A stretch of 64,000 nucleotides of DNA from Ascidiella aspersa (taxonomy: Eukaryota). The translations under genes were made by a program, and so were the position numbers. Below are positions 543 to 51,233 of this stretch, in pieces; the stretch's first letter is position 1; each line of letters begins with the position of its first letter. The DNA lies in the NCBI GenBank assembly GCA_963924565.1, contig OZ004609.1, forward strand, positions 29,078,001 through 29,142,000. The letters run 5' to 3'. The notes beneath the pieces were generated by a model, which made no database searches, was not told the origin of the DNA, and saw nothing but the letters and a program-made list of their open reading frames with translations.

Positions 543-1651
543 CACTAAGTGGATGCCGTGTAAAGAATTTTTTTCTACAGAAAAAGCTGCTATGAATGCA
601 TCATGATAAAATATGGCAGCTTAAGTATAATGGTAGGTAACGGCTTCGACGGTTGTCCGATTTTGAATATTTTTATGGTCTGCAATAAATCTGTAAGGTA
701 CTTATTTTCGATCCTTAATAAAAATAACAATTAAATGAATACTTTCCGCACCCATAATACATTAATTTTCACATCCTGAAATAAAACATTTATCTTACTA
801 GCAACGAGAGTCGCAAGTTTACGTATATAATAAACCTTGGTAAATAAGGATTTAACGACATATCGCGAAAAGTAACACTAAATTCGGCTACAGGTTAAAA
901 TTTATTCGTTGAGCATCAGATATCTCTAAGCACAGATACCAGGAAAAACACAAATCTTACAGGATTTTTGGCAAAACGTTTATTGCAACTTTCAACAAAA
1001 GGCAACAAAGAAGGTTAATGCATCACAATGTTACATAATTCTGGTTAATTTTGGCAGCAACTTCACGACGTGATTAGGTAAAAGTAAATGAGGGTTATGC
1101 GCGTTTCTATACAATTATATATAAATGGGTATAGGTAAAACTATTCATATTTCTAAATATAAACTAAACACCACACTCTACAACGGGTTTATATACTGAC
1201 GCTGAACACTTAATGAAAAATAACACAAATAAAACCAATGAGGTAACTGGATAGGCGCCAACAGAATATTTGAAACGCGAACCGTTACCGAACCATTACA
1301 ACGATGAAGGTAGCCGAATTAGAGATATATGTAACATCGCTGAACTAACGAACAGCAACATAAAACAAACTTATATCGGGCCAGGACACTTTTTAGGTAG
1401 TGCTAAACGTAAGATTATACAGATAACGAAAAGCATAGATCACAAAAAACTTGTTAAAAGGGCGAGGATGTAACGTTATTACGAGCCTTGAAACATCAAG
1501 GCCCTGGCAAGAAGTTATATATTTATAGGGGCATTTTAGCACAAAGCAATATATATCACATTGATTAGTTTGTGCATAACAAAAAAAGAGAAACGCAATT
1601 CAAATTGCACGCGATTTCGAGCATGCTGTTGATTTTCGAAGGCACAACAGG

Positions 1652-10600: not shown

Positions 10601-13600
10601 AGCTTGCGGCCTCTAAATATCGATGCAAAGCAACGACAAAACCCAAATCAAAAACTAACTTGTGAGGAAGCCGAGGCTTTACGTTCAAAGATTGGTCAGC
10701 TCCTGTGGGTTAGTGGCCAGACAAGACCTGATGTTAGCTTTAATGTTTGTATTATTGCAACAAACTTCAAGAGGGCTACTGTGAGGGATTTATTGGACTG
10801 GAACAAAATTATTAGAAGACTGAAGACGGAAAAGGTAACACTGTCCTACCAATAGCAAATTGGTGGTGTACTCTGATGCAGCGTTTGGTAACCTTATGGA
10901 CGGAGGAAGCCAAGGTGCTTACTTAGTATTTTTGGTTGGGCCTAACAAGCAATGTAACTTGTTAAGTTGGCAATCAAAACGAATTAAGCGTGTTGTTCGC
11001 AGCACACTAGCTGCAGAAACTCTTGCCATGTCCGATCGGGTTGAAACGGCGGTATTTTTAAAATCGCTTTTAAATGAATTGTATTTCGATGATTTAAATT
11101 TAACAAATATTCCTATCGAAGTTATTACCGACAATCGCTCTTTATGTGATGCTATTTATTCTTCCAAATGTGTTACTGATAAACGATTACGTATCGACAT
11201 TGCCGTACTTCAAGAATTGGTTGACATTGGCCAAATATCTAATATTTCATGGTCACCTAAAGATAAGCAACTGGCCGATATCTTAACCAAAGATGGTGTT
11301 TCGCCTGTGTCCCTCTATTTGGTTTTAGCTAACGGGCATCTTTAAAAAAAAAAAAAAATTATAATGAGTTTGTTAACCTTAATGTTTTAGTTTATTTAAA
11401 CACTGCTCCTAGTGGCGCGCTTTGCCTAGAGCATGTACGTGTCTCGTTTGTCCTTCATTTGAGACGCGCCTGTGTTAGTGGTAACATCTACTCTGTTGCG
11501 GTGTAAATTAAGTTTTATATTTATTCTGTGTTTATTGCTATTAGTGTTGATAACTTTGTGTGATTCTATTTGAATAAGGAACTAAGGTTTTGTAACCATC
11601 GTCGTGTTTATTGTTTGTAAACTGATAAAGACTTCAGTGGACATTAACTTTCAGTGAGTACAGTAAAATGCTATAAAAATAGTTTTAGGGTTGTCCGATG
11701 CTTAACATTTTATTTCGATACTGACTCCCGAAATTTTGGAAAAAAACTATCGCAATCTAATCCGTTACAAAATTAAGTGATTAGTAAGTTTAAACAAGCA
11801 ACATGGATAACATTGAACGTTCAATAGTACGCTTTTTTAGGTTTTTAGGGCTTTAAGAATTAGTTACCTCTAGTTTTTTTTTTAATATTTCATCTTTCAA
11901 AGAATCGCCGCGTTGGAAAATCGTGACTAAAATTCTTATGTTAATTTGGTATCAGACCGGCACCTGTACGACACTAAGCAAAACTAGTCTCTGTCTGTAG
12001 AGGAAAAAGTCAAAAAAAATAAATCATTATTTCAAAACTGAACAAACGACAAGTGATGATCAGTTCATTTGTAATAATAACAAAGGTTTCGAATCAAGGC
12101 CTTCTTTTCTGCAACTTTTTATTTACTTATTTTATCTATAGTTAACAGGGAAAATGTGTTGCATTGTAACAAACATAACAATATACCTTGCGAAAAAAAA
12201 TCCTAGTACTAATTGGTGCTGCTAAAGAAAAATACAGATTTTCTTGCAAACAGGTCGAACCAGTTATAAACTCACTAGGATTGGCGACTCCATTTTTAAC
12301 GGCAATAAAGGCGAGGGTCTGTTCGGCTTCTTTGAGGCGTCCCTTCGAGTAAAGCCACCTCGGTGACTCAGGAATGGACCTAAATGTAAAAAAAGACCCC
12401 CCAAAAAACAATATTCCTGTAACAATAGCAACACTCAACTATACATTTGCTTAGAAAAAATACTAAAAAATGAAAAAAATTAAATTCGTGGTAAAACTTG
12501 GTTAGGCCAAAGAACACTAGAAGTTGCAAAATAACGTTTTTTTTTATCAATTTAAAATTTCGCGCATGGCAACCTATTTTTTCTCTTTTAATATTATTAA
12601 CAGATGTACCGATAAACGCAAACCGTACTTCTTCTAACGTTACTGTTTAAGTGGGTGTATATGATTAAACTACAGTACAGATTATTTGTGAAAGCGATAG
12701 CCTATGGTGCATTGATTCTGATTTCTGTTTCTGTATCGTTAGTAATATGGTCTTATTTGCGTTAGTCACACGCCGTTTCCTTTTCCGTTTAACCACGTAT
12801 GTAAATGAGATTACTAATGAATGGGAATTTCGAGTCATGGTGGACGTTGAATGCGAAAGGAAAAAGTTTATGGTCCTAAGAACGTTTTAACATAAACGGC
12901 CCAAATAATAATACTTGCATTTCGCAATGACGATGATGTTGAATTGCCCTAAGGCGGTATAAGTGCTGAGCCAACACATAAGATCACTCAAACCCAATAG
13001 GTTCAATCCTCTGTTGTGACAGACGGCAAAGAAATAAACTGTTTTGGTAAACTTTACCTTATGTTGTGGTTCCACAAAAACAATACAGTTATTTCCTTGT
13101 GATTGTTGCTTCACTATAGAGGGCTATATTTCGCAGTGAGATTGCTTTACAATCAAACGTCCTCAGATTTCAACAAATCAAGGCACGCATTCATTCTCAT
13201 ATATTTAACAGTTATAATATTATTTTGTTTTACTGAGATAATTTCCTTTGCAAAATAGTAGAATATTACCACAGGAAATAACAACGTGATGAATTGGCTT
13301 CGGTGGGTTTAAGTGAAACGTTTTTGAAATTATTTGTAATCTGTTAGTGACAGGTCAGTCATAACAACAACATTTCAATAGTGCATAGCTTAAAAAACCA
13401 ACGTCGCACTGAACTGCACTCACCACATATATATGAAAGGGATTGCTTGCGGCAAGGTAACAAATAACGTGAGGTCTCTCCAACCAGGTACGTAAAAAGC
13501 GCATATGGCAAGGATGCATATTCCAACGGCAAAAAGAATATTGCTGACCGCCCCTAGAAAAATATATGGTGATGGCTATTCAGAGTTGTTGCCACACAGT

Positions 13601-16186
13601 TTTATAAAACAAACTCAAAGACATTTCATAGAAAAAATTATTTTTAACGACCTATTTGATTGCCATGGTAAACAAAATTTGTTTTATTACAGCACTTTAT
13701 GAACACATAACTTAAGCTGGACATGAAATAACTACAAACACTATTTAAAGAAAAACAAAGGGTTTTTCAAAGACTTTTTAGCAACACTGGTAATTTTCGT
13801 ATTAATTCATTAACATTGGGAAAAAGACACCCGGCTAACCAGCTTCATAGAAACGCATATCGAAGGCAAAATTCATATCCCAGTGAAACTTGCAAAAAAT
13901 CGACTTAGGGCCACGTCTAAAATCAAAGAGCACACCTGTGACTGCCCACCAGGACCTTCCAACCATCTCTTGTAGGTAGACATAGAGCACCAGGGTCGCT
14001 CCTCCCTGTAGCGTACCGGTGAAGAAGCGGGCAGCGGCGAAGTGTTGCCAGGTCGGCGCCAGGGCAGTGCAGATAGACGATGGCAGTAGAAGGGTGAAAC
14101 CTGCGGCAAAACGACCACGGTTTTCCGACAGAAGACTAGTTTGGCGCTGATACTCGACCCGGCTGTTGAGTTACTCAACCTGTTGCGTTATATCTTCATA
14201 ACAAATGCTTTTTGTATAGTAAAAAATCAGAAGTAGGTATCGTTTGAACGTTTCGAATATCTCTTATTTTCAACATCATGTGGTTTGTAACTTAACCCAT
14301 AAAATTCTTGATTAAAAAAAAACACAGATTAATTTAAAAACGCGCGATCGGTCTCCTTTGAATTTGCCAGATTTTACCGTAGCAGGTAGTGGTGTATAAC
14401 TATAAGGGAAGGACCTTGCTCTATTGATGGATGGGGAACCAAATGTTGGGCAAACTTTCTCACTTACCGACAAGCATCAGGGGCCTTCGTCCGAATCGAT
14501 CGGAAAGCTGGCCGAACGCGACCACGCCGACCAAGTTGCCGAAAAAGTAAAAGGACTGAATACGATCGCTCACCCACTGGCGATCCATTAAGCCCCACTG
14601 TGAACAAGTATAGCTAGGTAAAGGTAAAAATATTTCAATTAGGGCAAAGGACGGTAGCAGGGCCACTGGCGGTCAATTAAGCCCCACTTGGAAAAAGTAT
14701 AGGTTATGGTTAGAAATAGAAATATTTTATCTAGGGCAAAGGACAGTATTAGAGGACGATGGAAGCCTAACACTTTCAAGGTGAATCTTAAACTGTTTAT
14801 AAAAACAGTTAAAACATAAAATAATTTCTTAAATTTTAACAGAAATATATATTTCGCCTATAAGACATCATCAGTTACTTAATTCCAATGAATCTTTTAA
14901 GGTGTGAATTAAAAACGCCGTCATGACATTGGGTCATTCCATGCCGTTGAAAGTAATACCTGGACCAAGAAGTGACTTCGTGGAGACTACATACTTGGAA
15001 AAATAAGTTGGAGCAATCGTCGCCTCACCCGTAGGTGCGTGGGGGGCGTAGATCTGCTACCGCCCGGCTCTAACGCAGGATGGAAGATATGGCGTTGTTT
15101 GAACCTACTGCGAACTGGAGTATAGCACGCACAAAATGGAGGCTGGAAAAGTGGGGTTTCAAGCACCTTGTGTGAATGCGGCACAGCAGAGGGCACAGTC
15201 GCTCACGGCTTAAAATGCCCTTTGATTGATGAGCCATGCTCCACCACTGATCTTGCCGAATTTAACGATCGGGCGAGACAGTGTGTCGAAAAATGGAAAC
15301 TCTCCGTTTAAAAATACCAACTTTAAAGACTCGAATATATATATATATATGTAAGCTAGTTTCCAGAACCACTGACATTCTGGGTATTTTTTTGTAGGTC
15401 AGATTACGGTGTGAATTTTTTTCTTTTTTAAACGTCAAAGCTTTGTCCAACCTTGAGCATGGCTAACTTTTTCGAACAGCAGTTTAACAAACACTCTTTC
15501 AGAGTAAAGATTTAACGAAAACAACGAGGTTGGCGTGAAATTTCACACTGAACTGCTTACCTCTTTTAAAATGGAGCTATCATCTGAAACTTGCGGGTTG
15601 ACCTTCTGCAGATCCGCCGGTTTGGCACCAACAAACACAACCAGCATTGTGTGGCATGTCAAGAAGAGCTGAAATATAAGGTCAACTCTAATTTACATAG
15701 AAGTAGTGATCTAGTTAGGTTGATCAAGCGTGAAGAATAAACGTTAAATATTTTGTAATACTTTACACGCGCCACAAATGTGCCGCACCTATCCATGGAA
15801 TGCTACAATACAGGTCGTGAGTTCGAACCTTACTGTAGGCTATAGTTGTTTTTCTAGCCTGCTTTGCTTGCAACATTTACCGACAGATTTGTTTAGTATG
15901 CGTTGGTGTACTATAATTTGTGTGCCGCTATCGTTGGTCATAACGCGACTTCAGTACGGCTAGATCACGGTTGTTGAACATTATGTGTGTGTACCTTTTA
16001 TGGAATGCCATACATATAAAATAAAAATTAGTTCTTTAGGGCACTTTTTTTATGTATTAAAGATAGGCAACATAGAAAAACCCTTATTACCTGGTAGATT
16101 GACATCACGCCGTAGGTAAGCTGCTGGTATCGGCCAAAAGTGCCGACCACTTTTGTGTAGCAATCGTCAACATCCAGCTTTTCCAT
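1652..16186 (-). CDS. SLC22A15: SLC22-family (SLC22A15-like) organic cation/solute transporter, 11 coding exons, ~478 aa
   Basis: GT-AG exons 16091-16186, 15561-15668, 14468-14597, 13936-14100, 13424-13553, 12276-12379, 6588-6708, 4969-5109, 4261-4337, 2293-2471, 1652-1837 join into one 1437-nt frame. Motifs: [40 protein letters not shown]. The short first extracellular loop resembles SLC22A15; exact orthology is not certain. Confidence 0.88.
3254..3810. repeat. Tandem array of ~2.7 copies of a ~203-bp unit
   Basis: Units begin AATGACTTTAC at ~3254, 3458 and 3660 and share GCAGAACAGTTTACTTGTTAT-like and TTCGCTAATAG blocks. Confidence 0.9.
4418..4723. mobile_element. hAT-type MITE, degenerate
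   Basis: CAGGCGTCACC...GGTGAACCCTG with GCGGGCCGG subterminal repeats. Another degenerate element lies at ~3916-4222. Confidence 0.6.
4747..4919. mobile_element. Short foldback MITE with ~40-bp imperfect TIRs
   Basis: TGTTACGCCAAATTTCAGGACTCTGTACTTCACGGCCT pairs with AGGCCGTGAAGTAGAGAGTCCTGACACTTTGACGTAACA; TA-rich flanks. Confidence 0.7.
5275..5594. mobile_element. hAT-type MITE, degenerate
   Basis: CAGTGGTTCTCAACC...GGTTGAGATTCACTG with internal GGGTGCCG repeats; no clean TSD. A similar remnant lies at ~60410-60708. Confidence 0.7.
5616..6281. mobile_element. hAT-type MITE
   Basis: TIRs CAGGGGTCGGC...GCCGACCCCTG, perfect 8-bp TSD GCCTAAAC, subterminal GGCCCGC repeats. Confidence 0.9.
6773..7055 (+). 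repeat. 5' LTR (283 bp)
   Basis: Direct repeat of 11371-11653 with two visible mismatches (6784 G / 11382 A; 6847 T / 11445 C). Confidence 0.97.
6965..6980 (+). other. Ascidian (Ciona-type) spliced-leader exon sequence in the 5' LTR
   Basis: ATTCTATTTGAATAAG matches the 16-nt Ciona SL exon. It is followed by GA rather than a GT donor, so it is not an intact SL RNA gene. Confidence 0.85.
7057..7074 (+). promoter_or_regulatory. Primer-binding site complementary to the 3' end of initiator tRNA-Met
   Basis: TGGTAGCAGAGGATGGTT, 1 nt after the 5' LTR; reverse complement of the animal tRNAiMet 3' end (AACCAUCCUCUGCUACCA). Confidence 0.93.
7073..11345 (+). pseudogene. Disrupted gag-pol polyprotein of the Copia element
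   Basis: Zinc knuckle [14 protein letters not shown], protease IIDTACS, integrase HLQFGH..CDIC with [31 protein letters not shown] and YVDD, RNase [21 protein letters not shown]. Frame breaks at ~8693, ~10257 and ~10855. Confidence 0.92.
11371..11653 (+). repeat. 3' LTR (283 bp)
   Basis: Direct repeat of 6773-7055, followed by TSD GTGAG. Confidence 0.97.
11563..11578 (+). other. Spliced-leader exon sequence in the 3' LTR
   Basis: Same ATTCTATTTGAATAAG at LTR positions 193-208. Confidence 0.85.
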
Positions 16187-17536
16187 GTTGGAGATATGCG
16201 TCCGTTAGAACACAGCAACTTTATTACCAATGAGGGATTAAGCCCCTACACGCTACACCAACATATTTGCCTACACTACTGCAGAAGGCCTGGATTAAAA
16301 ATCGTCATTACATGCTGAACACCCTACTTTTAATAAAGAATTACAGTATCGCTTTATTTAATAAACGCACGATGATTGTCAATATCTGAAGTGCAAAAAT
16401 TGAGAAACGGTGCAGAAATCAAGGAAAAGAAAAATTATTATCTCTGAAAATAAAATACAAAAATAGGTTTACATCCTAGATTAAACTCTGTTTAATAAAG
16501 AAAATGCATTTTTTTTTAATTTAGAAGTAGTTTAATGTGTAAAAAAACACAAAATGTGTAACTCAATCCTTGAGGGTCAATTTTTAGCATTAAAACTACT
16601 TCATGTGTGTTGCTACATGACATGGATAACGTTGGCAATACAGCAAGTAAAATAAACATCCATTCAAATATTGCATACAATGTTTTATCCAATTTCAAAA
16701 AAGCAAAAAGTCACAAAACATGATTTTAAATATTTACACACATTTGTTTTCGTTTTAAAAACGTTTTGGTGTAACAATCAACAATACTGTGCAAACACCA
16801 AGGCAATACTATTGCTATTTCGTACACACAACAATAAAATAGAAGTGTAAAATGTTGCAGGATAAAAACTGGCATATGCACAAGAATAGTAATTAATACC
16901 AAGTCAGGCTGATTGCAAAGGCCACAGTTAGCACACTACAAAAACAATACAAGGTAAAATAAATTGTCAATTTATTTTTTTTAATTGTTTTAATTGTCAA
17001 TAAAACAAAGGTAAAGCTAAGAATACAAGTTTATACCCTTTGCAAGGGTTTAACAATATATTGTTTAAACATTGCAGACATAGGTTAAAGCAGTCCACCA
17101 TTAAACTTAAAATATTGACCGGCTAATTAAAAAAAGAAAGAAAACATAAGCCAAAAGACAAATTTACATTAATTATAAAATGAATTATCAAGAAATTGTC
17201 TGGTAAAACTAAAGATTGGTAGAAAGTTTAAGAAATAAAATTAGGTTTACAACATCCCCGAAAAATTGTTTAAACATGTCAAATTAGTTTGCAGTGTAGA
17301 TACAAAGTTTAATCTACAACTATGAATTCAATTGTCTAGCGCAATGCACAAAGCAGGACAATACATAAGCTAGGAATGTTAAAAGGCAAAAACAGTTTGT
17401 AACAAACTTGAATTTTAGGTGACGTGCTTAGCATGGTCAAGAATTTCTAAAATGTACAATAAGGCTGAGACTGACGCTTAACTGTTCCGATAAGACTTTA
17501 GTCCCCACACAGTTGAATAGAGTGGTGGATGAAATC

Positions 17537-19407
17537 CTAAACTACATGCTCATCTTCTTTGTTTTCATTCAGCAAAGGATTCTGTAAAAAATACACTTTA
17601 GAACTATGCATAAGTTATGTTACAGTTCAAAGCAAATAAGGGCTCTGTTTCAAACATTACATTTCAAAAAGAGGAATGGACAGGTGCTTAATGAATAATA
17701 ATAATTTCTATGAATTCAACCATGATGTTTAGAGTCAGTTTTTAGGCTTGGTGTCCTTTTATCATTATATCATGTTTACAAGCACAATAATGTAAATCTA
17801 TAACAACTGACAAAGGGGGGTTAATAGATTTCAAAACATTTGTAGGTACCATTTCTTAAAGGCATTATTCAAAGCATTTTTTTCGATTATTGCATGGACA
17901 ACATATGAACTCATGATTATGCAAGTAATTAGATTTTTATGATCTCAATATTTACATAACATATGATGTTTAATTACACTACAAAATCCATTAATGACTG
18001 CGAAAAACAAAACATTCAAAAAAGCGGAATTCAGCCATTACACTATTCAAAAAAATTACCGCTTCTTGTTCTTGTCTATTTCTTCCATGGCGTACATTGA
18101 GTACATTGGAAAGAGTAGTAACTGGTTCAGCAGTGGTTTTGACTTGAATATTTAAATCTTCAAATGAGTCCGGCGGTTTCCTTCCCAAAGTCTCTGGAAG
18201 AAGCATGGTCAGAAAACCTGCAGTCACCCCAAATGTTCCAAAAGCAGCATATGAAGCAGCTGCATTGGATGATATCTGCAACAGAATAAAATATCTTAAT
18301 GTTCACACAAGGATTAAAGAAAAAATAAATGTACAAAAAATAAAATTACAGAAAAAAGAACAGCAATATAAGTTCACCTGCCAAAAGATTCTCAACTAAA
18401 GTCAAAGAATGTGTTGAACCTATAATGATGTTGATGATTGTATAATAAGTTGACAATATAAAACAATTGGCCTGACGTTGTAGCCCATCTTTTTAGGTCA
18501 ACAATTTAAGTCAAATGTGAACATATATAGCGTGTCTGACTTAACATTGATGGGGCAAAACATGAAAGTATCCTGCCAACCCTCGCACAAATTGCTGCTG
18601 ACCCAAGTGCAACATTTCTCACCGTGGTTGGAAAGAGTTCGGGTGAGTAAATGTAAAGTGTGTTGAAACTGGAAGAAACCATCATTTTTCCAACAAGTCC
18701 TGAAAGTATTAACTTAATTATTTATGGAGTATTTAAAAAAATAAAACTGATACACATGTGCACTGTGGCAATATTTAAACTATGTTCTGATTTTAGGCGC
18801 TAAACTAATAGCACGTCCAATTGTATATCATGTTTTAACAGTTTGTTGTACCATAGGCTGGAAAGTGACTGATAAACATATGGTGCTACGGTTTTGTGAC
18901 TAAATCAATAGTCGTTACAGGGTGCACCAAAAGTAAACAATAGCCCTCTCTTGTTTGTCGAACATAAAAATTAGGTACACATATGGAGAATCATGATTTA
19001 TATTTTTAGGCATGCCATGCATGTGTTTGGTAAATTTTAAATATATATATGCCAAAGCACAGTTTTCTAAACTTTACTTTCTGGGTTATACCTAAGATCA
19101 CACATGACCACCAAAAACAGTACTGAACATACCTCATATCAAAATAGTACTGTCATTTCCTGCTCGCGGGTTAACCTTTAAGTCTTCAGGCTTCGTAGCA
19201 ACAAACACCGGCAGCAAATTGAGAGCTAGAATTACAATCTGTGTAATAAAATCATACAATATACGGGTAATTCATTGTCGAAGCAAGATTTTAAAATTAG
19301 AAAATTTAGCGGTTGCTTACACTAAATATGTTAATGATGATAAACAGTTGGAGCTGGTACCTCCCAAATTCATCAACAACTTTGGTATAGGCATCATCTA
19401 CGTCCAT
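17537..19407 (-). pseudogene. Tandem SLC22 paralog, internally deleted pseudogene
   Basis: Exons 19321-19407 (MDVDDAYTKVVDEFGRYQ), 19133-19238 (106 nt, ending ATA TGA G), ~18545-18730 (GLVGKMM..YSPELFPTTVRN; in-frame TAA, degraded acceptor, donor reads TTAAGT), 18060-18275 (LLPETLGRKPPDSF) and 17537-17581. Homologs of exons 3-9 of the intact paralog are absent. Confidence 0.85.
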
Positions 19408-20410
19408 CACAAGCAGAACTGAAGTCAACGAAAAAAAACACAGAAATACAGTTTGAGGTAACTAAACGATAGGATACTAAACATTAATACTCCATTGCTG
19501 AAACAAATACATCTGCACATAACAACAAATTAATTGAATAAACAAAACTGTTAGTTTAAAATATTATATGGCTATCATAGTTACTTTGGGAAAGGGTACG
19601 TCAACCTTTTTCAAGTCACAGACATGACTGATATTTTTCTCAAACACCAGAGATCTCGGCGTGAAGAGCCATGAAATGCAGACTGACCCCCTGCTTTAAC
19701 ACCAACATTATTCGGTATTTTAAATGCTTTTTAACGGTATTTTAAAAATAGTTTTCAGTTTTTTTAAGTTCAATAGCATTACCATTTTGTAAAAAATGTG
19801 TTTTCTTATAAATATAAACAAAAATAAACCAATTTAACTTTGCAACGTTGTCATCTTCTGTTTACATTTAGTCAGATAAGAGTCGATGAACACGGTCACG
19901 CACGATTAATTTTAGTCGTAGAGGTGTTTTATGAAGAACCTTATTTGTTACCCTTATATAATAGGCCTACCATATGTCCTTTTTTAGGAGGATTTGTCCT
20001 CTTTTCTAATAAAAAAACAAATGGTCCTCCGAGGACGCTCAAAAATGTCCATGTCCTCTTTTTTCGCATTTCCAGTTAATTGCTTATACTTGTATAAGGC
20101 GAGACGTTGTATGTATTTCCAAAAATATACTATAGCCATGAAACATGCTGAATTGCTGGTTTAAAACAGTTAATAGCCTATTTAATTTTTTTGCAATGAT
20201 TCCAATGGTTTCGCTGGGTTGTACACCACTCCTACATTCATCCAGCGTTCGAACTATTTTTTATCCATGTTTTATTTAATTGGATAAAAGGCTAAAATGT
20301 TTTTGCAATATTGCCGTTGTATTGTGTGTCATCACATCTTTTGAAACACGATAACGCAAAATTTAATTTTTGCGCTTACATTTTTATTTGCGCTGACATT
20401 ACAACTGTGG

Positions 20411-21015
20411 AGTGTTGTCATTTTTATCACAGTTTGACGTCATTATTTTGTTAAATAGGTAACATTGAGTTTAAATCGCCAATTATACCTATGCCAACCT
20501 AGAGGAAGAATTAAGCAAGTAATATATCGGCTCTGTACCGTGACGATTTTCGATCAAATGTGTCTAGGGGGACACGGCCGAAAAATCTTAAGAACCCCTA
20601 ATATAGATAGTCATGCAGGCCGCAGGCTCCGACCCCTAACCCGGCCAATTTCCTCCCAGGAAGCGACGGGGTGCGATCAACAGCAAGCAACTGCAATACC
20701 TCGAGAAGTACCGGCCTCGCTACTGCTTGAAAGCGAGGGACAACAACACGGGCTGCTGCGTTCAGTAGCAGCTTCCTGTTTACTCAAGGACGCTCGCCCA
20801 AGTTGACATTTACGTTGTTGTTGTTGCTGCTGCTGCTATTTTGGGCGTTTGACGACAACAACGCGCTGTTTTTTCTTCTTCTGTCTGCAGTCTTGCGATT
20901 GTAGTTTAGGTTGGTCGCTATACTCTTGGCTTTTGTTTGGGTTGCGGCGCATAAATTTCGGGCGACGTTGGTTGGCGAGATCGGAGTAAAGTAACTGGCT
21001 GGCGATCGATTTGTT
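20411..21015 (+). repeat. Inverted duplicate of the PTP4A last-intron end, terminal exon (20660-20768) and proximal 3' UTR
   Basis: Reverse complement of ~24545-25318. The exon's coding part is identical and retains its acceptor TTTCCTCCCAG; the flanks carry substitutions and indels. Confidence 0.95.
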
Positions 21016-23527
21016 TTGCTTTTGAAGCAGCTAATAATATCCTCATCGATTGTTTTTTACAGCATATTCTAATGTGTCTGTGCAATTTAAGGTTCTGGTG
21101 TAGGCCTATTGCCATTGTAAACTGTTTTGCCGTGTTCCGAAATCTAAGCCGATTTCGAAAAAATTTAATATTTGCCGTGCCTTTCTGCCCTAAGTATTGT
21201 ACGTTTTTTCTTTCGTCTTTCATAAAACAATTTCATCATTGCAATTTGATGTTTATCGCCCCGCCTTTATATGCATTTGTATCGACGTTTGAAGCAAATT
21301 TCAAAACAGTAGGCTGAACATAGACAGCGCAAAACTGACCATCAATGTTAATATTTTACAGCAAACTTAATGTTTTAGTCTATTTTTCATGACTCATTAG
21401 CAGTATTGTAAGCAAAACAAGTTAAATATCCATTTGAAGCAACCGTATTCCATTTACCTACCTCAGCGCTTTTATTATGCAGAACAGTTTTATTTATGTC
21501 CTAATTAAAGAAGACCAATTCAATATTCTTGGCAATTTGTATAATGCTATAGCACTAATGTAACTCTATCCTACCACTATTGTTTATGTGTTATTGCGTG
21601 TTTTACTCGCCCTTTGGCCCTTTTGGCAAATATAAAATATAGCAACTAAATCTGGTAGAACGCAACTGCTTTAAAGTCATGTTAGCCTAATTTTCTTACG
21701 GCAAAAACCATTAATTCTTATATAACCCACCTTGCCTTATAACAAAATCCTACCCCTTTGCATTTCTGGCCAAGGAAAACTGTAATTCTACTGTTAGCAC
21801 CTTGCGGTTTTGTAGCATCATTCTCGTTTTTTTAGCAATTTCTTTATATCGTGTGACAAAATACGAAGGATTATCTTTATTTTACTGTTTTTGTGCTTCG
21901 TAAGGAATTTCAATTTGCTTGTTTTTGCACATTTGGACCTTCTTCTAGCAGAGTCACCACTTCCTGGTTTTTGATCATTTTTCTGAATTTGCATACTTTT
22001 AGCATAAACCTTACGTACAAAATTGTTTGTGACCGAGAGAGTCTTACAATTATAATATCGATTATTCCGCCAGTGTCTTATCTCTATTATCCAACGCTCA
22101 ACTGACCATTAGCCCATGGGCAAAAATATATTAAATATGGAAACATGGGATTCGTTCGGCTGCAGTATAGTACTATTTTTGGAGTACTGCACTAGAACAG
22201 TTGTTTTTGCCTACTATTGTAGTTTGAATTACAAACCACAGGATAGAAGGCCTAGCCTAATAAACTTTCGACTTTACATTTTGCTGTATACACAGATCTT
22301 CATCTAACGTTGGAAAATATAAATTTTTATTGAAATCTTTACGTCTATAAATCTTTCATTGCTTTGAGCTTCGGCTCACTGGTGGTGGCTTGCCTCGTTG
22401 TACACCACGGAATAACGGTCGAAGCAGTGGAGAGTGGTCATTTTCGTGTGAGCAACTTTATTTCCAAGCAACGGCGCGACGAAAAACGGTAATAGAAATA
22501 TAGTAAGGGGCCAAATAAAAGCGCCTCGGCCAACCAAAGCGTGAAACGAAAGGTAGCAGCCAAATAGGCGGACCGCCAAATCGCTTGTTATTATTACTAT
22601 ATTAATACTAGATGACTTCTACTGAACAACCCTTGCGCCACGCAAAAAAAATTAAACCCTACTGAATTTCATTCGAGCTGCAGTTCATAGCATTCCATTC
22701 GCCAGCTGCTTAAGGTGAATTTAACACAACGCCAAAACGCAAGCAACGCCAACCCTTTGCAAACAAACCACACAAAAAAACACCTTTCGTCCGGTGTCTG
22801 CAGCTCGAGGGCGCCAGGCAGTGGACAGGTAAATGGAAGCGTAACGTCCTTCGCAGCCCTTCGCCCAAAACATCTTCCCGAAGAGTTCCGGTGCGCGCGC
22901 GAAAACGAGGATGCAAAAAATCGCCAACAGTCACTGAGGCGAACAAAAGACAAAGAGAGCGAACAACGCAAACATGGGCAATCATCGAAACAATAAAAAA
23001 AAAAAACGATCGAAAATACTTCTTCGTGCAAGGATAAAAAAGGAAACTCGTCGTCGGTGAGACTGATGACGTATGCGGCGCAAAATGATGACGTCATATT
23101 ATTTTGATTGAATATCTTTTGCCTGCACGGCCCAAATTGCAACAATACACTTGCAATTTTTCTTGTTTTTGTTCGTATGTGCTTTTAGCTGTGCTTGTTT
23201 CATTGCCTTCAGTGAATTCGGTGCAAACACATATTTTTTAAAGTTTGTTTATATTTGTCGGCGGGTAGGTCGAGGTGTTTAAAGTTCATCGCAAAGAAAA
23301 ATCGGGCATTTTTCACAGGACAAAACCGCAGGCCTGTAACTATTATATAACATGCTTTATCCGGAAGTAAAGCTTATTTTATAAACAACTGCACAAATAA
23401 AGATGTGTCGATAAAATAAAGCGTTATGGCGGATAGTAAATGAGTGCCGACTCATTCGAGTCTCGAATAGTGTTCTACGGTTAGTTCAAGGCATACCTTT
23501 GCGAGTGAAATACAAAAGCCTGGCTTC

Positions 23528-23623
23528 AGGAAATCGCTTTTTCGCAAACGTACACTCCTGTAGGTAAACACAATCCTTGTTATTTAAACGTGCGCAGTGG
23601 ATTGTTTTAGAACATTGTCGTTC
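23528..23623 (+). repeat. Direct repeat of window positions 1-96
   Basis: AGGAAATCGCT(G/T)TTTCGCAAACGTACACTCCTGTAGGTAAACACAATCC... is near-identical at both sites. Confidence 0.92.
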
Positions 23624-24799
23624 TTTACACAGCATCCACATTTAATACTGCAAACGCCACGTCGATTTCGGCAGCCCTTAGAGTTGAGTTAGGTTGAACT
23701 GAGTGAAAACACGTACAGGCCGGAGAGAGGGAAAAGTTGGGCTCCGCTATCGGCAGTAGAGAAATTAAGGTCCAGAAATACATTTCTCGAAGAGAATTTC
23801 ATTTACGCAAAAAAAGCCTTTTCTTGAACGCGGAACAGTTTCCACCGGCCTGATTTTTTTTACTAAAAATAGTTTTAGTAGGTCCTCTTTTTTTTCCTTT
23901 TAAGTAAGCTGTGCCTTGTCACGCTTTAGGGTAGCACAAGGGCAACAGAAGTACATTTCGAACCTAGGCGTCGTTCGTGGCTTGACCAGTTGACGTGAAA
24001 AAATTTTACAGCGCAACATATCACAGATGATAGGGCCGTGCAAAAATATCGGGGCGAAGTCAGTTCGCGGTTGAGAAAAGATTACGTTATATTTTTTTTC
24101 GTACAGATATAGCGCCAAACAGCGGGTTATAAACTTATTGACAGCCCCTACCCCACCCTGTAAAGGTTTACTGTCCAGAAAAGCCGTACTAACTACGGAA
24201 CTGCAATGGCAGAAATTACATTTTTTGTAAGGAAATACGATAACAGGGACTAAAAAATTTTAAACCAATAATATGCAAACTTTTCCACCTAACGGACATT
24301 TTTTGCCCTTTAAACAAATTAAGGGCCACAATATGTTTAACAAGGTAAATTAAAAATTACCAAAAAATTGTTACTGTAAGGTTCAAGTTAACAAAACGGA
24401 TGATTTCAAGTTAATAATTAAGAAAACGAGTTTTAAAGATGTTGAGCGAAAATCCAAAACTTTCTGACGGGCCCCTCTTTGAGAACCACATGCCAAAACT
24501 CAGTGGGTAATACGTCCAACTGAGCGAATCGCGCTTTCAACCCAAACAAATCGATCGCCAGCCAGTTCCTTAACCCCGACTTCGCGAACCAACGCCGCCC
24601 GAAATTTACGCCGCAAACCAAACAAAAGCCATGAGTATAGCGACCAAAACAAACTACGATCGTTAGGCGCGCGCGGCAGAAGACTGCAGACAGAAGAAGA
24701 AAAAACAGCGCGTTGTTGTCGTCAAACGCCCAAAATAGCAGCAGCAACAACAACGTAAACGTCAACTTGGGCGAGCGTCCTTGAGTAAACAGGGAGCTG

Positions 24800-27700
24800 C
24801 TACTGAACGCAGCAGCCCGTGTTGTTGTCCCTCGCTTTCAAGCAGTAGCGAGGCCGGTACTTCTCGAGGTATTGCAGTTGCTTGCTGTTGATCGCACCCC
24901 GTCGCTTCCTGGGAGGAAATTGGTCGGGTTAGGGATCGGAGCCTGCGGCCTGCATGACTATTTGCAATTCAGGGGTTGTTAAAATTTTCGGCCGCGTCAC
25001 CCTATAGACACATTTTATCGAAACTCGTTTTTATCTAAAACAGATTTTTTAGTGATTGGAATAAAATTATGTGTGTTATTACCGACGAAAATGTACTTTA
25101 AAAGAGAAATTTGTGTGACAAACCTTAAACAAAGTTGTTTTTTAAGCGCCCCCCTTGCAACCCCGTTCACCCAGTTTAAGAACCCATGATTTATCGGGTC
25201 CGCGTCATATTACATGCTTAATTCTTCCTCTAAGTTGGCATCGGTATAATTGGCGATTACATTCAATGTTACCTATTTAACAAAATAATGACGCCAACTC
25301 TGTTAAAATGACAACACTTGCTATGACGTGGCAGATTTATGCGGCCCACCTGTTGAACATCGTAACCCAGTACTAAACTTGGTATGGTAGTCGCATCTCC
25401 AGTAATGACAACTCAGACACGATAAAACTTCAACGAAAGGCCATTAATGTTGAGCAGCTATAAATAAACATCGATCGACCGATTTAGGACATGCGATACT
25501 AACAATAGCTTTCCGCGAAATTTAGTGCCTTTTAACACTGATGAACAACACACGATGAATCAAAGCTGCGGGAAAGAATCGCATTCTTTCCAATTAGGAA
25601 ATGTTTCTGTTTTTTTACAAGTTTTTCCTTTATAATACTTTTTAAAAAAAAGTTCAATGATTTATGGGAAAAACAGACTAATGACATCATACGTTTCAGG
25701 AAGACCTTATTTCAGCTAACAAGTGTTGTGTTTTCTTCACAAATGCTTCCTATGCTTGGAGCCAACCACACCGAAATAAAAAACAAGACAAAAAAAATGA
25801 AAACTTACTCTCGAATCAGTTCGACGGCGTCTTCATACTTCATGCCGCTTTCCATGAGCGCTAGGGCAACGAGGACGGGCGCCCTGTGGAAGAAAAATAA
25901 AACATACAATCTTGCAATTGGCAAAATACGTGTGTAAATTAAATTAAGGGGCCCGGACCCAGGAAGAGAAAAAAGCATAAAAACAACGATTCAATCGTCA
26001 ATACTTGCTGCGAACGTTTATTTGAAAAGCGCCGGACTCAATTGGGCATTCAGGTGTCCCTTAACCTAAAGTTAGACACACAGAATGCACTACCTAGGTT
26101 GTTTACTATAGTCTTTTGTGGTGTTTAGTTGTCACAACCTTCTAAATGGTAATAGAATGCCGAATGACCAACTCCGCAATCCTTGCTATGGGTGGTTATG
26201 GAAAGCCTGTCGGTTTAAAAATAGGCCATGTAAGGCTGGTTTGGCAGTTTCCCTAAAATCTGAATTGAGTCATGCGTAAAGAGCAACTAAATATAGTAAG
26301 TTGGCACAAAAAGGGAGTTAAAACAGGGTTGTGACTGTTTGAAATGGTCAACTATAAGGATTTTAAAAACTAGGCAATAGCAGAACACAGTAAGAGAAAC
26401 ACACACTATTTTTAAACAGTTTACGCCGAAAAGTTGATCGCGGTAATCGGGCGAACGCGTTCGTGTAATTTCTGGGAGCACTTTGTGATGACGCTAAACA
26501 TAGGTCAAAGTCGAATTTATATTTCCCACACATGAAAGAGCGTATCTTTATGGAATCTAAAACCATTGGCAGCTGGTTTCTCCTTGTCGTTCACTGTTCC
26601 GCTGACGCGTATATAAACAAATAAATAGTTTAAAAACCTGAGTAAACACAGGATCAGACATTTTAATGCCAGTGTAGGCGAAATATATATCCGGGCTTAC
26701 TGAAGTTTTTACACTGAGTTTTGTATGTTATATTTCACACAGTTATGGCGCACTTTACAGTTGGGTTTTTCATAACGAAGCCAAACATTGACAACTCTAT
26801 AACGAACCTTAAACCAAAAAGCGGAACAGGAAAAAACGCTATTTTTTCAATCCAATCACGAGCAACTAATAGAGTTGTGACAGTAAGCGAAGAGAAAGTT
26901 GTGACGATTGCTAAGCCCAACTTTGAAGATAACGCGTGTATGAACAAAACGAAAGCTGTGCTTTAAGTCCGTCTACTTTTTATTACCATTTAAACGCAGT
27001 ATTCGGGAACAGTGCAAAAATTACAGCCTGTATTATTACCACCTGCCAAGACTCACGTCACAAAAGCAAACACGAGTGGGAACCACTCATTGGCTGGCGA
27101 ACTATTTTGCAAACGGATTAAACAGATAATGCCTAAATTAGTTGCTCGGTGACGATGCGCATGAGTCATAGAAGGAAGCCTCGGATCAACACAGAACGAG
27201 GCAAGGTCGTCCTGTGTTGGCCTGAAGTGACCCGATTTTCCAACGCGATGACACATGTAAGGCAGAAATAGCTGAAGACACGTAATAGCAGTTTGTCGTA
27301 CGACATATGAGCCTGTTGTTGTTGAACACTGAACAGCCTAGTCGTATTGTCCCATGCTGGTGCAATGACATGAAATAAAAACGATAAAACCGAAATGACC
27401 TCGGCAGTGACATGGGACTGTGTGCCATGGCATTTCAGTCACGGAAAGCGGCTAAGCTCAAGATTAGGGCGGCGCAAATCAATGGCGCGCAATAATTATT
27501 CGCCACGGAATACATAACTGTGTAGTGTGCACCCATACAGCGAATATAGGTTCAATGCGTAAAGGCATTAGTTTTGACGATTACGAGCCCAGAAAAGTGG
27601 GCAATCGAGCATTGATCCGAACAGCACCGATCGATTATTGCCGCGCGACACTCGTTTTTCTGTTTAATTTTAGTGTCGCCTTAGTGTGGCTGTGCTTGGT

Positions 27701-30700
27701 GTGCTATGATCGAACAATTATATTATTTCAATAGGAAAATGACGGCGAGCAATAGGTGGACGAAAAACGTGGCCGCAAAATCGAGCAAGACACTCTGTGT
27801 AATATACAGTGGCGCGCGAAGTGGCCACATTTTTAGCAATTCAAGGCGGGGGGGAATATGGCGAATTTTGTTAAAATGTTTAAAATAAAGAGATTTTGTT
27901 GGAGTGTGGCAAGCAAACGGACCAAGAGAACTTGCCAGGTGGTTATTTCGCACAGCATTGCGTACGTGATGGCAAGTGCGTCTTGATATGCGGGAGTAAC
28001 GACGACAGTTCTGCGAACTTTAGAAAGCGATTTTTTACGACTTGGCGTTCGACAGGATATTGTAACCGCGCGACAAGGTCAGATCTTTTATAATGCGTCA
28101 ACGAACTTGTCGTCCGAGCGGTACGTAAGTTTTTATGGCGCAATTCGCGTTGTTTTGTGCAAAGAACACTTGGGTTTGCGCTTCGATTTGTAACGTTGCC
28201 ACATACCGTACGTGAAATAACACTATATTGGTACGCAAACTTTGGAAGAGGCCACATTAACGCCATAAGTGAAAGTTATACCAGTAACAACACATCGACT
28301 GTCACCCGGTTTTGTTTCGATTTTTTTGAGGTAAACTGCAACGGTCATAATATGTATTATATTGCCTAAAAGTGATGCTTAACCTTTCCCAGCCACCTAT
28401 TAATTTTCTATCACTTGCGTAACTTAAAAATACTCAGTTCGTAGAAAACAAAATTCCGACACCCTAGCGGGCGATCTCAACCTGCTTCCGTGCCGTTTCC
28501 TTTACGTAAAAAGTACATACCAGTGTTCGCGTAATTTTTATCGAAAAAAATAAATAAAACAGGGACCTACCTTCCGAGCCCGGCGACGCAATGCACAGCG
28601 ATGCAGCTCTCCGGGTTCTGCTTGTGATGCGCCTTGAGCAGCTTCAGCCAGTCGTCAACCACGTCTTTGGGCGGCGCCGCTCCGTCATCGAACGCCCAGT
28701 CCTGCGCGATGACGTCACACATTTTAAAGTGACGTATGAGGGACGATGACTCATAACTATGCGTCCCGTACACGACGGGCTTCAACTATAGTCTTAAGAT
28801 GTCCTAGATTAGTTGCTCAGAAAATCTATGACCGAGGACGCAGGACATTTCGATTATTTCGATCTGGTTAAACATTCCAAAAAGTGTAGTAGTGTTAAGA
28901 CTGGTAAACCAGGTTGAAATGCACGACTGTTCTGCGGGACTCAAAATAGGGGCGGGACATTTGAGCACAGCAACTGACAACGCAAGCGCAGCATATGACT
29001 AACCCTTAACGGGAGAATGTCACAGAGAACATATAACGCTTGCCATACCATTACTGTGTTAAACTCCGATGCGAAAAAAATAATTTGTGCAAAGGGCCGA
29101 CCGATCCGTAACCAACATGCGTCAGTACAAAGGTCAACTAATAGGTCTCAAGATTAAAATTACAAAGGTGGTGTCGGTAAAAACCATGCCTGAAAACCTA
29201 GATCAATTTAGTAGTGGGCCGGTTACGAGACAGTTACCGATATTACTACTAGCTATCGGGTATCGACTCACCGGACATCTCTAAATGGTGGCAATCCTAA
29301 CATTTATATCGGTTTGAGAAAAAGGAAATTGGTTTATTGAGCGATAACTTCCAGGCAGCCATGAATTCTGGACTCGGCCCAAGACGTGACTTGAAAGCTG
29401 TCATATCCCCGCTCGTAAAACCGATTTCCTGATATTCGACGTTTGGACGAAATCAGCACCGAACCTCAACAGTTGAGCGAATTGAAAAAAGGCCAACCGC
29501 GCTTAAGTTTAACGGCACACGCGGAACATGCGTAAATACGGGATAATCGCGAGAAAGCCGCGCCTGCAAAAGACGACTTGACGTGAACGTGACGAACGTG
29601 GCCGAAGCAAGTGACAGGCGAGGAAGGATTAACGGGCGTTTTATTGCGACCTAAAGCTGCCAAAAACAGGGGGTCGTTGTGCAATAAAGAAAGCCCGTCT
29701 CAAAACAACGGTGGCGAGTTACCCAGAAAGTGCTTCCTTAACTACCTACGGGTAATTATCTACAAAGGCACTTTTTAGGGGGAGCTGGGGAAACTTTTTT
29801 TTTTATTCTGCACTTTTTAGGGGGTGGGGTAACTTTCTACAATGTTGTTATATGCTATTTTAACGCTAAAAAACATAAAACATTCCGGTAATTTGGCATA
29901 CAATTGCAGACAAGATAGTTAAAAAATGTAATTAAAAATTATGCTTTAGTTTAACAACACTAAAAAGCCAGGAACCACCACAGGTAATTATAACGTTGTT
30001 TATGTTTTACAATATCGGGTTATACCTTTATAATTTTAGAAAGGGGTAATTAAAATCCCGAAGTTCTTCTCAGGGTTAAGGAGAGTAAAAAGGTCGAGAA
30101 CCACGGAGGTAAACAATCGATACGTTTCGCGACTGATCAACGTTAACGACAATCTTGGCTGTTTAATGGCGGCTAATCAGCTCGACTACAAGAGTAGTGG
30201 TGGCGAGCCATTAGCGGGAGGCCGCAAATCAAGCGAAAACGCGTCAAGGGTGCAATTAAAGGCCATTTTAGTCCACTATGGACCGGAGCGGTAGCGAACT
30301 TTTTGCCGTCTACAAAGTTAAACCCAGTTACCTCCAGTTACCTCAGTAAGAAACAAATGCAGCAGTAGCAAAAGTGTATCCCATCTCCCATGCAAACCTT
30401 TTCGCAAAAAAGGTCATGATTAACCGTCTACATCGAACGATTTTCATCTGAGGACCGAATATGCCTTTCTTCAGATCAGGCAAAGGATACGCAGATCTTA
30501 ACGATTATTGGTGAATTTCTAATTCTACATTTGACAAGTAATTATGTTTACAATGACGGATCGAATGTTCGGGTGTACTGCTCAGCTGCATATTTTATGA
30601 AAACACGTTTCGGTGCTTTTTGTGTCAAAATAATGTGGACCCTTGTATTACAAATTAAAAGATTGTTCACAAAACACGCCACTTAAACACCTTGCCGCCT

Positions 30701-33700
30701 CGGCTATTCATAGTAGGTGCTAGAAATTAATGCCAGATGTGGCAAAATTCATGTACACCTTTGCAAAAATGAGAAATGAGAATCAATGCAGTTGGCAATT
30801 TAATAGCAACAAAATGTCCTACGTTTAAAGTTACGTTCGCAATAGTGAGATTACGGTCATTTTCTAACAGAAATGAAACGTCAGATGCGGATTTTAGTTA
30901 AACCAAAGTAGCTCGAATTATTAGGGTAATTTATTTTCTAAAGTTCGAGATTAAAGGCTAATATAAAATTGGCAATTCAATAGCATCAGAATGTCACCTA
31001 CGTCGAAATTTACTTTCGCAAAGATGAGATTACGTTGATTTCTTGACAGAAACGAAACGTCAGATGCGGATTTTAGTTAAACCAAAGTTGCTCGCATTAT
31101 TGGGGTAATGTATTTCTGAAGTAGGAGATTAAAGGCTAATATACAATTGGCAACTTAATAGCATCAAAATGTCACCTAATTTAAAAGTTACGTTCGCAAA
31201 GATTACGTCGATTTCTTAATAAAAACCGAAATGAAAACGTTAGATGCGGATTTTAGTTAAACCAAAGTTGCTCGCATTATTAGGGTAATATATTTTCTGA
31301 AGTTCGAGATTAAGGCTACGTGCGCTACGACTCTTTGGACAGATCCAAAAGTAGCGTCTCGATCGGCCGCAAAATGCTATTTTCGTCAGCAAAGCAACAA
31401 CAGAGTGGCAGAGAAGCAGCGGAGACAACAGAGCTCGCAAAACAGCGGATCGGCCCGCGAGATAAGAAAGAAAAGGGGCCGTTGAGAACCATCGGAACGA
31501 AATGGATTCGTGCAGAAGCATCACCATCAACATCAGGCTCTACACCACACCACGTTACGGCATCGTCGGTAAACAAGCTAATCGTCCCTAATGCACCGAG
31601 CGCCCGGGTCGCTATCAGACAAGTCGAAACGAGCCCGAGACACCCCCGAGGGACCGTCGGCGTCGTTTGTGACGTCACTCAAAGGGAGAGAACGTGACGC
31701 GGCGTCCGTCGCGTTTGCAGCGGCATTGCGATTCGGCTTTTTTATTTATAGCCGTGTTTTATTTAGTTTTCACGCCGTCGGTGAATTTAAGCGTTTTTTT
31801 GTGTCGCGCTGGTGGAGGGTGAAGGAAAAGTAAAATTGTCGGTCTAAAAGGATTCGACTACCAAACGAGGAAAGAGTGACTTTAAATATTGATAGGTGAG
31901 ATTGTAAGGTTGAAAATAACAAAAAAAACACTGGAGCGATCTTATCACTTTTTTGCGTTAGCTTTAAATCCGGACCTGCCTCGTCTTTTTCGGTTTAGGT
32001 CTTATCGCTCCAAGTGACTGGTTGACGAAAAACAGCGGTTTTGCACTAATCGTTTTAAACGACAAGTCTATCGTGTTAAATTCAAAGCGCTGGGTTTTGA
32101 CAAACAGGTCATCATACGAATGCCAACAGCATATTGCATCTTACTAGCACAAACATTATAAGGAAGTTCCATTTAACTAGAAGTTTTGTTTCGATAAGGT
32201 TTACTGATTGACAGCCCCATCGTGATCTGAGTGTAAAACAATAGCAAAAGACGAGAAGGGGCGAAACTGTAGCACACGACGTCGGGGTCACCAGCAACAC
32301 AGGGTCGCTAGTTTGGGATAACAACACCCGGAAACTCCCGATTGTTAAAAGTAACCCAATTACTATAGACTGCAAGTCCGCCATTTAAAGCGAAGTTTGA
32401 GCAATTTAAAACGCCATTTCAGAAGCTATCGTTGGTTGGCGTTTTTTAAAGGAAAATGCACCGCCAAAAACCGCATCCATAACTTAAGACATCTTAAAAT
32501 TATAGTAAATATAATTCTTGCGATCTACTTTACATCTATAATTCATCCAGTTATATGCGAGAAAGGCCATATTTTATAGTGAAATCACAGTGCTAGCGGT
32601 AATACTCAACAAACTCACTGGCGGGGCTGTAAAGGTATGCTAAACAAGGGCCACATCGTCGGTAGATGATCTAGGCCTGAACGAAAGAGCGCTATTAAAA
32701 CCGACCTACTGGGCGCTACCAATAACGCGCTGTGTTGACGCTAATTATTTCCCGGGCAGCGTTGGCGGAAGAATATGTTTACCCTCACTAGCGGACGAGC
32801 CGCCGCCGGCTGTGCATCGATTCGGGTCTGTCACGACGAGCCTCGAAATTTTGCGATGCGCGAGCGGCGAGTTATTGTCTGGTGGGCGATTTCGTAGAAG
32901 CAGCGGCGGAGATGAGCAAAAGCGTCGCAATTTGGCGGGTGTATCGATTGCTGCCCACAGGGTAAGGGGTTTTTCGTTAAACAGGGCACTTTTTGAGGCG
33001 CAAAACAATTTTTTCGTAACTGTCAGTAAACATTTGGTTAGTTGGGCTGGGTTGCCCGCTGATGGCGTTTGAGTGGTATTACCTTTTAGTTTATGGAAAG
33101 TTTTAAGTGAACTCCCTCCTGTTTGTACAAGTGGTTAGAGGCATCGAAACGCGACCCCTATCATTTTCCATTTATATACACACACGAGATCAATAGTTTA
33201 TGGTAACTTACTTTAAACTTATTGTTGTCACTTTGAGTTTGAGGACTTTACTGATAGCATTAGGTTTAAAAGTTTGTAAATTGGTTGAACGAAATAATAT
33301 TGTATTTGAAGAGTCGTGAATTAATTATAAGTCTTATTGAAAGAAGAGCTCTATTGTTTATCTTACTCTATTTAACCTAAATTTTGCCATTTTCACTTTT
33401 ATTATAGAAACGCGTTTCTGCATGATTGATCCTCAGTCAACCTTCATCGCCATTTGGTGAAACCGTAACAGAGTCGAAATACACGCGATTTGTTTAGTAA
33501 ATAGCTTTGTTTTTCAAACACTCTTAACAACTGAAAACAGCTAATTTGCATATAAGGGAGCCTCAGCAGACAACAAAATCTAAGTAGTGGGCATCATGTT
33601 AAATTTAACCTACACAACGAGTTATTACTTAGGACGTTGATGCTTCGCAAACTGAATAGGACGGAATATCGTTCGTGGAAAAACTACATGCCATTTTTTA

Positions 33701-47209: not shown

Positions 47210-47651
47210 GCACCGCACACCGTGTAACGTATGCAACTTCTTAAAGGGAATATACGCGAGTTTGAGACAATGTTAAATCGGCTTCGGCGGACAACCTCGT
47301 TGAAACAACAATGTCTTGAAGTAGCAGCGACCACGAACGACAATAGATGTTGCACCATCACACTAAAAATATAAACTTTAAATAAAAAATCATGTGAAAC
47401 ATGGAGAAACAATATCTACTAAAATTTGTAACGGAATTCGTCAAAGAAAAGCCTACGCAGCAGTAAAATTAGTACTGCTATGGAATCAAAAGGTGTTTCC
47501 TTGTAGAAAACACTGGGACTGATAGAACCTCCTAGTAAGGCGCGTGGTATTTTTTACGAAGTACTGTAGCTGAAAAAGGTTACAGCTAAAACTAAAAGGC
47601 TGGCCAGCTCTTACAGAAAATCGGGCTAAGATAGTGGCAAAGTTATACGTT

Positions 47652-51233
<3,582 letters not shown>

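Follow-up and report, generated by a model that had tools for sequence, protein, structure and literature searches.

An inverted duplicate of the PTP4A terminal exon in Ascidiella aspersa: a probable stranded tail of a larger rearranged duplication

Why should the last exon of a gene occur twice within a few kilobases, in opposite orientations, with coding parts that do not differ at a single position? This question is raised by a 64-kb stretch of the Ascidiella aspersa genome (OZ004609.1, positions 29,078,001-29,142,000; hereafter the window, to which all position numbers refer unless prefixed G000:C3). Within it, the terminal exon of PTP4A, which encodes the C-terminus of a PTP4A/PRL phosphatase, lies in two inverted arms that share a perfect core:

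20411 to 21016, + strand: arm A, the orphan, with the end of PTP4A intron 4, the exon 5 coding part (20661-20769), and ~250 nucleotides (nt) of 3' untranslated region (UTR) (alignment)
24544 to 25318, - strand: the working arm, with the end of intron 4, the exon 5 coding part (24908-24800; KRRG...CCVQ*), and the proximal 3' UTR of PTP4A/PRL (alignment; RNA depth)
20645 to 20773, + strand: the perfect core common to both arms, 129 nt of acceptor tract, coding exon, and 4 nt of UTR

Our preferred answer, to which we give a probability of about 0.6, is that the plus arm was left stranded at the end of a rearranged duplication of ~23.5 kb, that the PTP4A mRNA, in the single RNA run analyzed, uses the minus arm and ends 1.4 kb short of the plus arm, and that the orphan has remained identical through occasional gene conversion.

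The two arms are separated by a spacer of 3527 nt and agree at 94% of aligned sites (541/577), with the acceptor retained in both. None of the 109 coding positions of exon 5 differs (20661-20769 versus 24908-24800), and these lie within the 129-nt perfect run. Outside the exon, substitutions were counted at 2/54 sites of the acceptor-proximal intron and 18/175 of the distal intron, and at 2/119 sites of the proximal UTR and 14/120 of the distal UTR. The arms also differ in length, by a 16-nt indel in the UTR, a 6-nt microsatellite change, and an intron indel that measures 178 nt on the minus arm versus 17 nt on the plus arm. A first-pass annotation, made from the letters alone, had placed the arms at 20411-21015 and ~24545-25318 around a ~3.5-kb spacer and had described the complete identity of the 109-nt coding part, the outward fall-off of identity, a ~16-nt UTR indel, and a microsatellite-length change, all of which we recovered; its ~185-bp intron indel exists as well, but that size was approximate. 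It had also noted that the plus copy keeps its acceptor and has no upstream PTP4A exons. Indeed, the exon core has two matches in the genome and PTP4A exon 3 only one, so no upstream exons were found for the plus copy, and the plus arm is an orphan within those searches.

The PTP4A gene itself lies on the minus strand and has five coding exons in all, the first four of which are as follows:

~39222 to 39118 (limits inferred), 34074 to 33982, 28701 to 28571, and 25883 to 25809, - strand: PTP4A coding exons 1 to 4 (translations, protein match)

Gene names here (PTP4A, and SLC22-like below) are based on sequence matches in the PDB. Exon 5 matched PTP4A2 chains (E 6.6e-11) and exon 3 gave a match at E 7e-17, while a Pfam profile search with exon 5 returned no match.

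We considered a stand-alone pair of exons and rejected it, as a search with the spacer and self-alignment with upstream DNA revealed a larger duplicated unit. Alignment of the window with 20 kb of upstream DNA gave the segment order X' S' X A S T A^ (the inverted arm), followed by PTP4A exons 4 to 1. Segments X and A are duplicated in inverted orientation and S in direct orientation, and T is single. The extra unit [S X A] is ~23.5 kb long, has the plus arm as its tail, and includes two inverted SLC22-like genes and most of the spacer. The partner copies of these genes and of the spacer part sit just upstream of the window and differ at ~10-12% of neutral sites. The segments and their junctions are listed below:

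21019 to 23623, + strand: segment S of the spacer, with a direct copy S' at G000:C3:29075405-29078096 (84% alike overall)
23624 to 24543, - strand: segment T, the middle of the PTP4A 3' UTR, with one genome match
567 to 19961, - strand: segment X, the inverted copy of X' (window-relative -18743 to -2785), carrying two SLC22-like genes
1 to 96, + strand: the right end of S', a direct copy of 23528-23623
105 to 542, no strand assigned: a small element at the S'-X junction, bounded by terminal inverted repeats, whose 8-nt flanks agree at 6/8
549 to 567, - strand, at the S'-X junction: a short stretch matching the start of T in inverted orientation (15/16 letters, extending by 3)
19962 to 20413, + strand: a truncated high-copy repeat at the X-A junction (1545 candidates, 40 of them scored)

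S and S' are identical over 189 nt starting at 21234 and over 187 nt starting at 22424, and the gap between X' and S' is 190 nt. At the junctions, changes of direction come with a T-derived insert or a repeat, as in rearrangements of the duplication-normal-duplication (DUP-NML-DUP) type. The T-like stretch at 549-567 is likely a templated insert; its score is barely above other chance alignments, and the argument for it is its position. The neighboring element at 105-542 is one that we take to be hAT-like. The repeat at 19962-20413 is truncated, given that all four fetched copies (4/4) extend further, and this filler of the X-A junction showed no homology to either flank beyond 19961 in the alignment. 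The A-S join is flush. In addition, X and X' form a much larger pair of inverted arms around S' (window 567-19961 versus G000:C3 ~29059257-29075215; ~16-19 kb, ~90% alike), and a crossover between them would invert S'.

In the RNA data analyzed, the transcript ends before it reaches the orphan. Reads of four of the 12 listed runs (X1, X5, X7, and X8) were placed on 21017-29500 at 85% likeness; the RNA is that of one run, X8, from one animal (546 reads placed, ~6% of the run read). These reads define one further feature:

22435 to 24799, - strand: the expressed PTP4A 3' UTR, composed of the arm, T, and the right half of S, with its 3' end resolved to a 283-nt bin (RNA depth)

Minus-strand depth was 5.5-28.9 in 9/9 bins of 22432-24978, with 13-29 across segment T, and it was 0 in 5/5 bins of 21017-22431. 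This coverage indicates that the PTP4A mRNA uses the minus arm, T, and the right part of S and ends near 22,440, 1.4 kb before the plus arm; an AATAAA hexamer lies close to that end, at 22462-22457 on the minus strand. At position 24632, 25/25 X8 reads carry the plus-arm letter; this may be a polymorphism shared between the arms, but a private change in the assembled minus arm would explain it equally well. Plus-strand RNA was found at low depth (0.2-1.9) on 21017-22148 and bears S' letters at 3/3 well-covered sites among those listed (2/2, 4/4, and 4/4 reads), and it likely comes from the upstream, SLC22-side copy. The 189-nt perfect S/S' run at 21234-21422 has such low plus-strand RNA and could represent conserved distal UTR sequence or a non-coding exon downstream of the SLC22-like gene.

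The age of the unit can be gauged from the rest of its content, which includes the following:

1652 to 16186, - strand: SLC22-like gene B, 11 exons with a 478-codon frame open in both copies (exon limits read by hand)
17990 to 19407, - strand: remnant of SLC22-like gene A, with a 1-nt frameshift in exon 2 and ~1.85 kb of middle exons lost relative to the upstream copy
6747 to 11656, + strand: a long terminal repeat (LTR) retrotransposon in a gene B intron, in X only, whose LTRs differ at 9/315 columns plus 2 gaps (~3%)

Between its copies, gene B differs at a proportion of 0.096 of synonymous sites (pS) and 0.019 of nonsynonymous sites (pN), with 19 amino-acid changes; its introns differ at 561/4733 sites, and 2 of its 11 exons are identical (108 and 77 nt). 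The middle of S differs from S' at 143/903 sites. Neutral divergence is thus of the same order in X (561/4733; pS 0.096), in A (18/175 in the distal intron), and in S (143/903). Allelic differences nearby amount to ~1% (8/1309 and 18/2193 in X1 contigs). The remaining exons of gene A carry 16 replacement and 9 silent changes versus ~20 and 34 for gene B (Fisher P 0.03-0.05); the script had returned 18 replacement and 9 silent changes for gene A, and two replacement changes were removed by hand (non-homologous bases at a deletion junction). The broken frame, together with the raised replacement ratio, points to long-relaxed selection in the extra unit. The internal deletion of gene A joins two similar stretches, the start of exon 3 and a later exon, and suggests a microhomology-guided loss. 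Pfam queries with single exons returned MFS_1 and Sugar_tr under the curated cut-offs or no match (3/8 queries), and of 51 candidates among longer proteins for gene B exon 11, none reached E <= 0.001. The LTR retrotransposon, which the upstream copy lacks, has its integrase before the reverse transcriptase (a copia-like order) and frameshifted open reading frames. Gene B is present in the unit as an intact second copy, possibly as a copy-number polymorphism.

Public reads bear on whether this arrangement exists outside the assembly. Two runs from different studies contain the A-S join: X7, where 2 raw DNA reads with 1 start cross it, and X5, where a contig of depth 7.3 does. Intron letters of the plus-arm type were seen in X7 (with one changed letter) and in X5 (in a form ~75 nt shorter). 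The presence of the join with variant letters in two public runs argues against an assembly artefact, and the variant forms suggest independent copies of the plus arm. In X7, two T alleles account for about half of the reads each, and S has a depth 1.5-1.6 times that of the single-copy flank. S'-only letters were found in 8/33 reads over the right part of S (a tally that excludes site 22646, which proved not to be S'-specific on alignment) and S' letters in 16/22 reads over the left part; these counts are small and neighboring sites share reads. If X7 is one diploid animal, the data suggest a carrier heterozygote with three copies.

The identity of the exon calls for its own explanation. When the arm differences were shuffled 2000 times, no shuffle gave a run as long as the 129 nt observed (mean longest, 52 nt). 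A freely drifting orphan exon would be expected to show ~5-6.5 differences rather than the 0 seen (P 0.001-0.005), and over 20607-20894 only 4/282 sites differ (P 0.0002-0.002 if only the orphan drifts). The exon is therefore too alike for a drifting orphan, and gene conversion is the likeliest reason for its identity. The first-pass annotation had proposed recurrent gene conversion or crossover between the arms, and the gene-conversion part of this is consistent with our data. Identity at synonymous positions carries little weight by itself, as over 22.7 synonymous sites it has P ~0.10 at pS 0.096. Moreover, the duplication contains other perfect runs of 189, 187, 133, and 117 nt (five runs of at least 109 nt in ~13.7 kb aligned), so the exon is not singled out.

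Several observations weigh against our preferred account. Two other orphan-looking blocks are equally conserved (21019-21422, 9/398 differences; 22380-22800, 5/421), and the exon, acceptor, and polyA region, all functional sequence, are where the conserved blocks fall, a pattern that past selection on both copies would match. These blocks were picked after inspection of the data, and conversion is inferred from the assembled copies. The replacement changes of gene A are intermediate, 16 against an expectation of 21-26 for an orphan and 8 for a functional gene. Read support covers the A-S join only, leaving out the X-repeat-A and S'-X junctions, and it draws on 40 of 250 rows for letter differences and 15 of 35 rows for joints. 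Finally, S'-specific letters occur in 0/68 X8 read-letters at four listed sites; the X8 animal may therefore lack the unit, and its negative RNA results weigh more for non-carriers than for carriers.

Taken as a sequence of events, our account would start from an ancestor with the order X' S T A^ PTP4A, in which the SLC22-like gene and PTP4A would have stood tail to tail. We prefer an ancestor with S not inverted because the RNA uses T, and because no other source was found for T and the 190-nt X'-S' gap. The unit [S X A] would date to ~10% of neutral divergence ago, with template switches or a tandem duplication combined with an inversion as its cause. Template switching, tandem duplication with inversion, and integration of a circle at S all yield the same order, and one replication event may be among the possible origins. 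Selection would have kept the working exon and UTR blocks still, leaving them the most alike stretches, and conversion from the neighboring arm or the homologous chromosome could then reset the orphan there. Crossing over between S' and S would remove the unit, and within the exon it would turn the spacer around; on this account neither outcome is a switch, only a by-product.

The conserved blocks can be read in either of two ways. Conversion may overwrite orphaned copies at sites under constraint in the working one, or the two copies may have come together only after diverging as functional sequences. On the latter reading, which we consider doubtful, the unit was captured late from a diverged haplotype or sister lineage with an inverted S, and it entered the locus as a circle, [S X A], through homology with S. 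In that donor, the 3' tails of PTP4A and the SLC22 gene would have been exchanged, with both genes working, and the identity of the exon would reflect past selection, leaving conversion unneeded. The match between conserved blocks and functional sequence is as this history predicts, and with both copies constrained, 0 synonymous differences have P ~0.10, in line with the two identical exons of gene B. The X7 proportions (16/22 left, 8/33 right) look as if the other chromosome were S'-like on the left and S-like on the right, but an S'-S deletion or recombination of the flank with normal alleles gives the same pattern. Repatriation of a circular intermediate by homologous recombination has been described in cattle, in the available text of PMC3420103. 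Against late capture, gene A is long decayed, the plus arm has its own variants in two runs, and nearby allelic differences of ~1% are far below 10%, such that a very diverged donor would be needed, and none was seen. We favor an old duplication with conversion over late capture, given that gene A has decayed and that the plus arm has private variants. We regard it as very improbable that the assembly has placed two divergent haplotypes in series, or that the exon identity is a collapse. Divergence shaped by constraint does resemble that of alleles, two of the three junctions have no read support, and a relation of X1 and X7 to the assembled sample is conceivable. However, the window has no N, the A-S join recurs with variant letters in X7 raw reads and the X5 contig, the two T alleles plus the joint and the S-to-flank depth in X7 imply a third copy if one diploid animal was sampled, and the artefact would require an X-A join absent from any allele pair.

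The first-pass annotation had also proposed functions for the inverted arms. It envisaged a flip-flop, in which crossover within the exon turns the spacer around and leaves PTP4A with an unchanged protein but a different 3' UTR. Such a flip would concern a 3.5-kb spacer, occur in some individuals or cells, and supply the distal plus-arm UTR and left S as the new UTR. The inverted-repeat geometry permits this, both arms have the acceptor and the 129-nt core, and left S offers a conserved block (9/398), plus-strand ATTAAA/AATAAA hexamers, and low plus-strand RNA. Yet no X8 read joins the exon UTR to 21017 onward at the 21017/24544 joint, where depth is ~13-25 (upper 95% bound ~11% if 25 reads are independent), the plus-strand RNA bears the letters of the upstream copy, and the arm is already explained as a duplication remnant. 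We therefore consider the functional flip-flop improbable; it has no support in X8, which may lack the unit, so it is not refuted. Co-option of the remnant, in which an exon crossover swaps the whole distal 3' UTR for that of the tail-to-tail neighbor as a heritable or somatic switch, appears quite improbable; if it were true, the conservation of the exon and of block 21019-21422 would reflect use. No UTR-swapping DNA inversion in animals was found in open-access literature text, and if flips were to be found and expressed, an animal gene would have a 3' UTR switched by DNA inversion. The remaining proposal, in which read-through or antisense transcription yields ~600 bp of duplex RNA from the paired arms, is extremely improbable. 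Arms that are 94% alike would pair in any transcript over both, but the X8 bins between the mRNA end and the plus arm have no minus-strand RNA, and opposite-strand depth was 0 in 3/3 arm bins. X8 thus shows neither a spanning transcript nor antisense arm reads, a result that, for one animal that may lack the unit, does not amount to refutation.

As matters stand, the locus is a clear example of a complex duplication that strands a terminal exon and UTR pieces which keep the conservation pattern of the working copies. It also offers a compact test of conversion against past selection, and it is possibly an old presence/absence polymorphism carrying a second intact SLC22-like transporter gene.

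The window contains some further features. A very high-copy short repeat occupies 26535-26690 in PTP4A intron 3, where X7 depth reaches ~390 per strand with many strand-changing joints. Intronic three-copy tandem arrays lie at 3247-3810 (~203-nt units) and 30786-31318 (~179-nt units), and at 14574-14748 gene B exon 3 is partially duplicated in tandem, with its acceptor and beginning included. Upstream of PTP4A, candidate gene exons at ~47650-51260 on the minus strand are presumably adenylate kinase-like, judging from motifs in their translations.

Recombinational inversion switches are known from Salmonella Hin, the yeast 2-micron Flp system, and the inverted-repeat isomers of plastids. As in Hin and Flp, inverted repeats here flank an invertible segment; in contrast to them, no second orientation, alternative product, or dedicated recombinase was seen, the last without a search aimed at it. 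The closest case is agrp2 of African cichlids, where, according to the accessible text of PMC6916709, an old duplicate of the last exon and UTR is normally untranscribed and occurs in some individuals only. Both loci have an old terminal-exon and UTR duplicate able in principle to replace the working exon. In agrp2, the copy lies in direct tandem, measures 1.6 kb, and was brought back into use by a deletion, with no conversion shown in that text, whereas the copy described here is inverted, lies in a 23.5-kb unit, is identical in its coding part, and would be usable only via inversion. Interlocus gene conversion homogenizes close duplicates in patches, and duplication through circular intermediates is known (PMC3420103, in the portion available). 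The patchy likeness of close duplicates recurs in our locus, and the unit [S X A] is formally equivalent to a circle inserted again at S; unlike those cases, the homogenized partner is an orphan exon, and both mechanisms are putative here. At human PLP1, the DUP-NML-DUP and DUP-NML-INV/DUP (INV, inverted) rearrangements covered by the consulted part of PMC6902434 are recent disease alleles with near-identical copies. Our locus shares with them duplicated segments split by single-copy DNA, an inversion, a short templated insert, and a junction repeat, and it differs in its ~10% diverged copies, later insertions, and gene decay. By its segment order, then, the locus belongs with complex interspersed duplications with inversion of a kind already known, as X, S, and A are duplicated and T is single.

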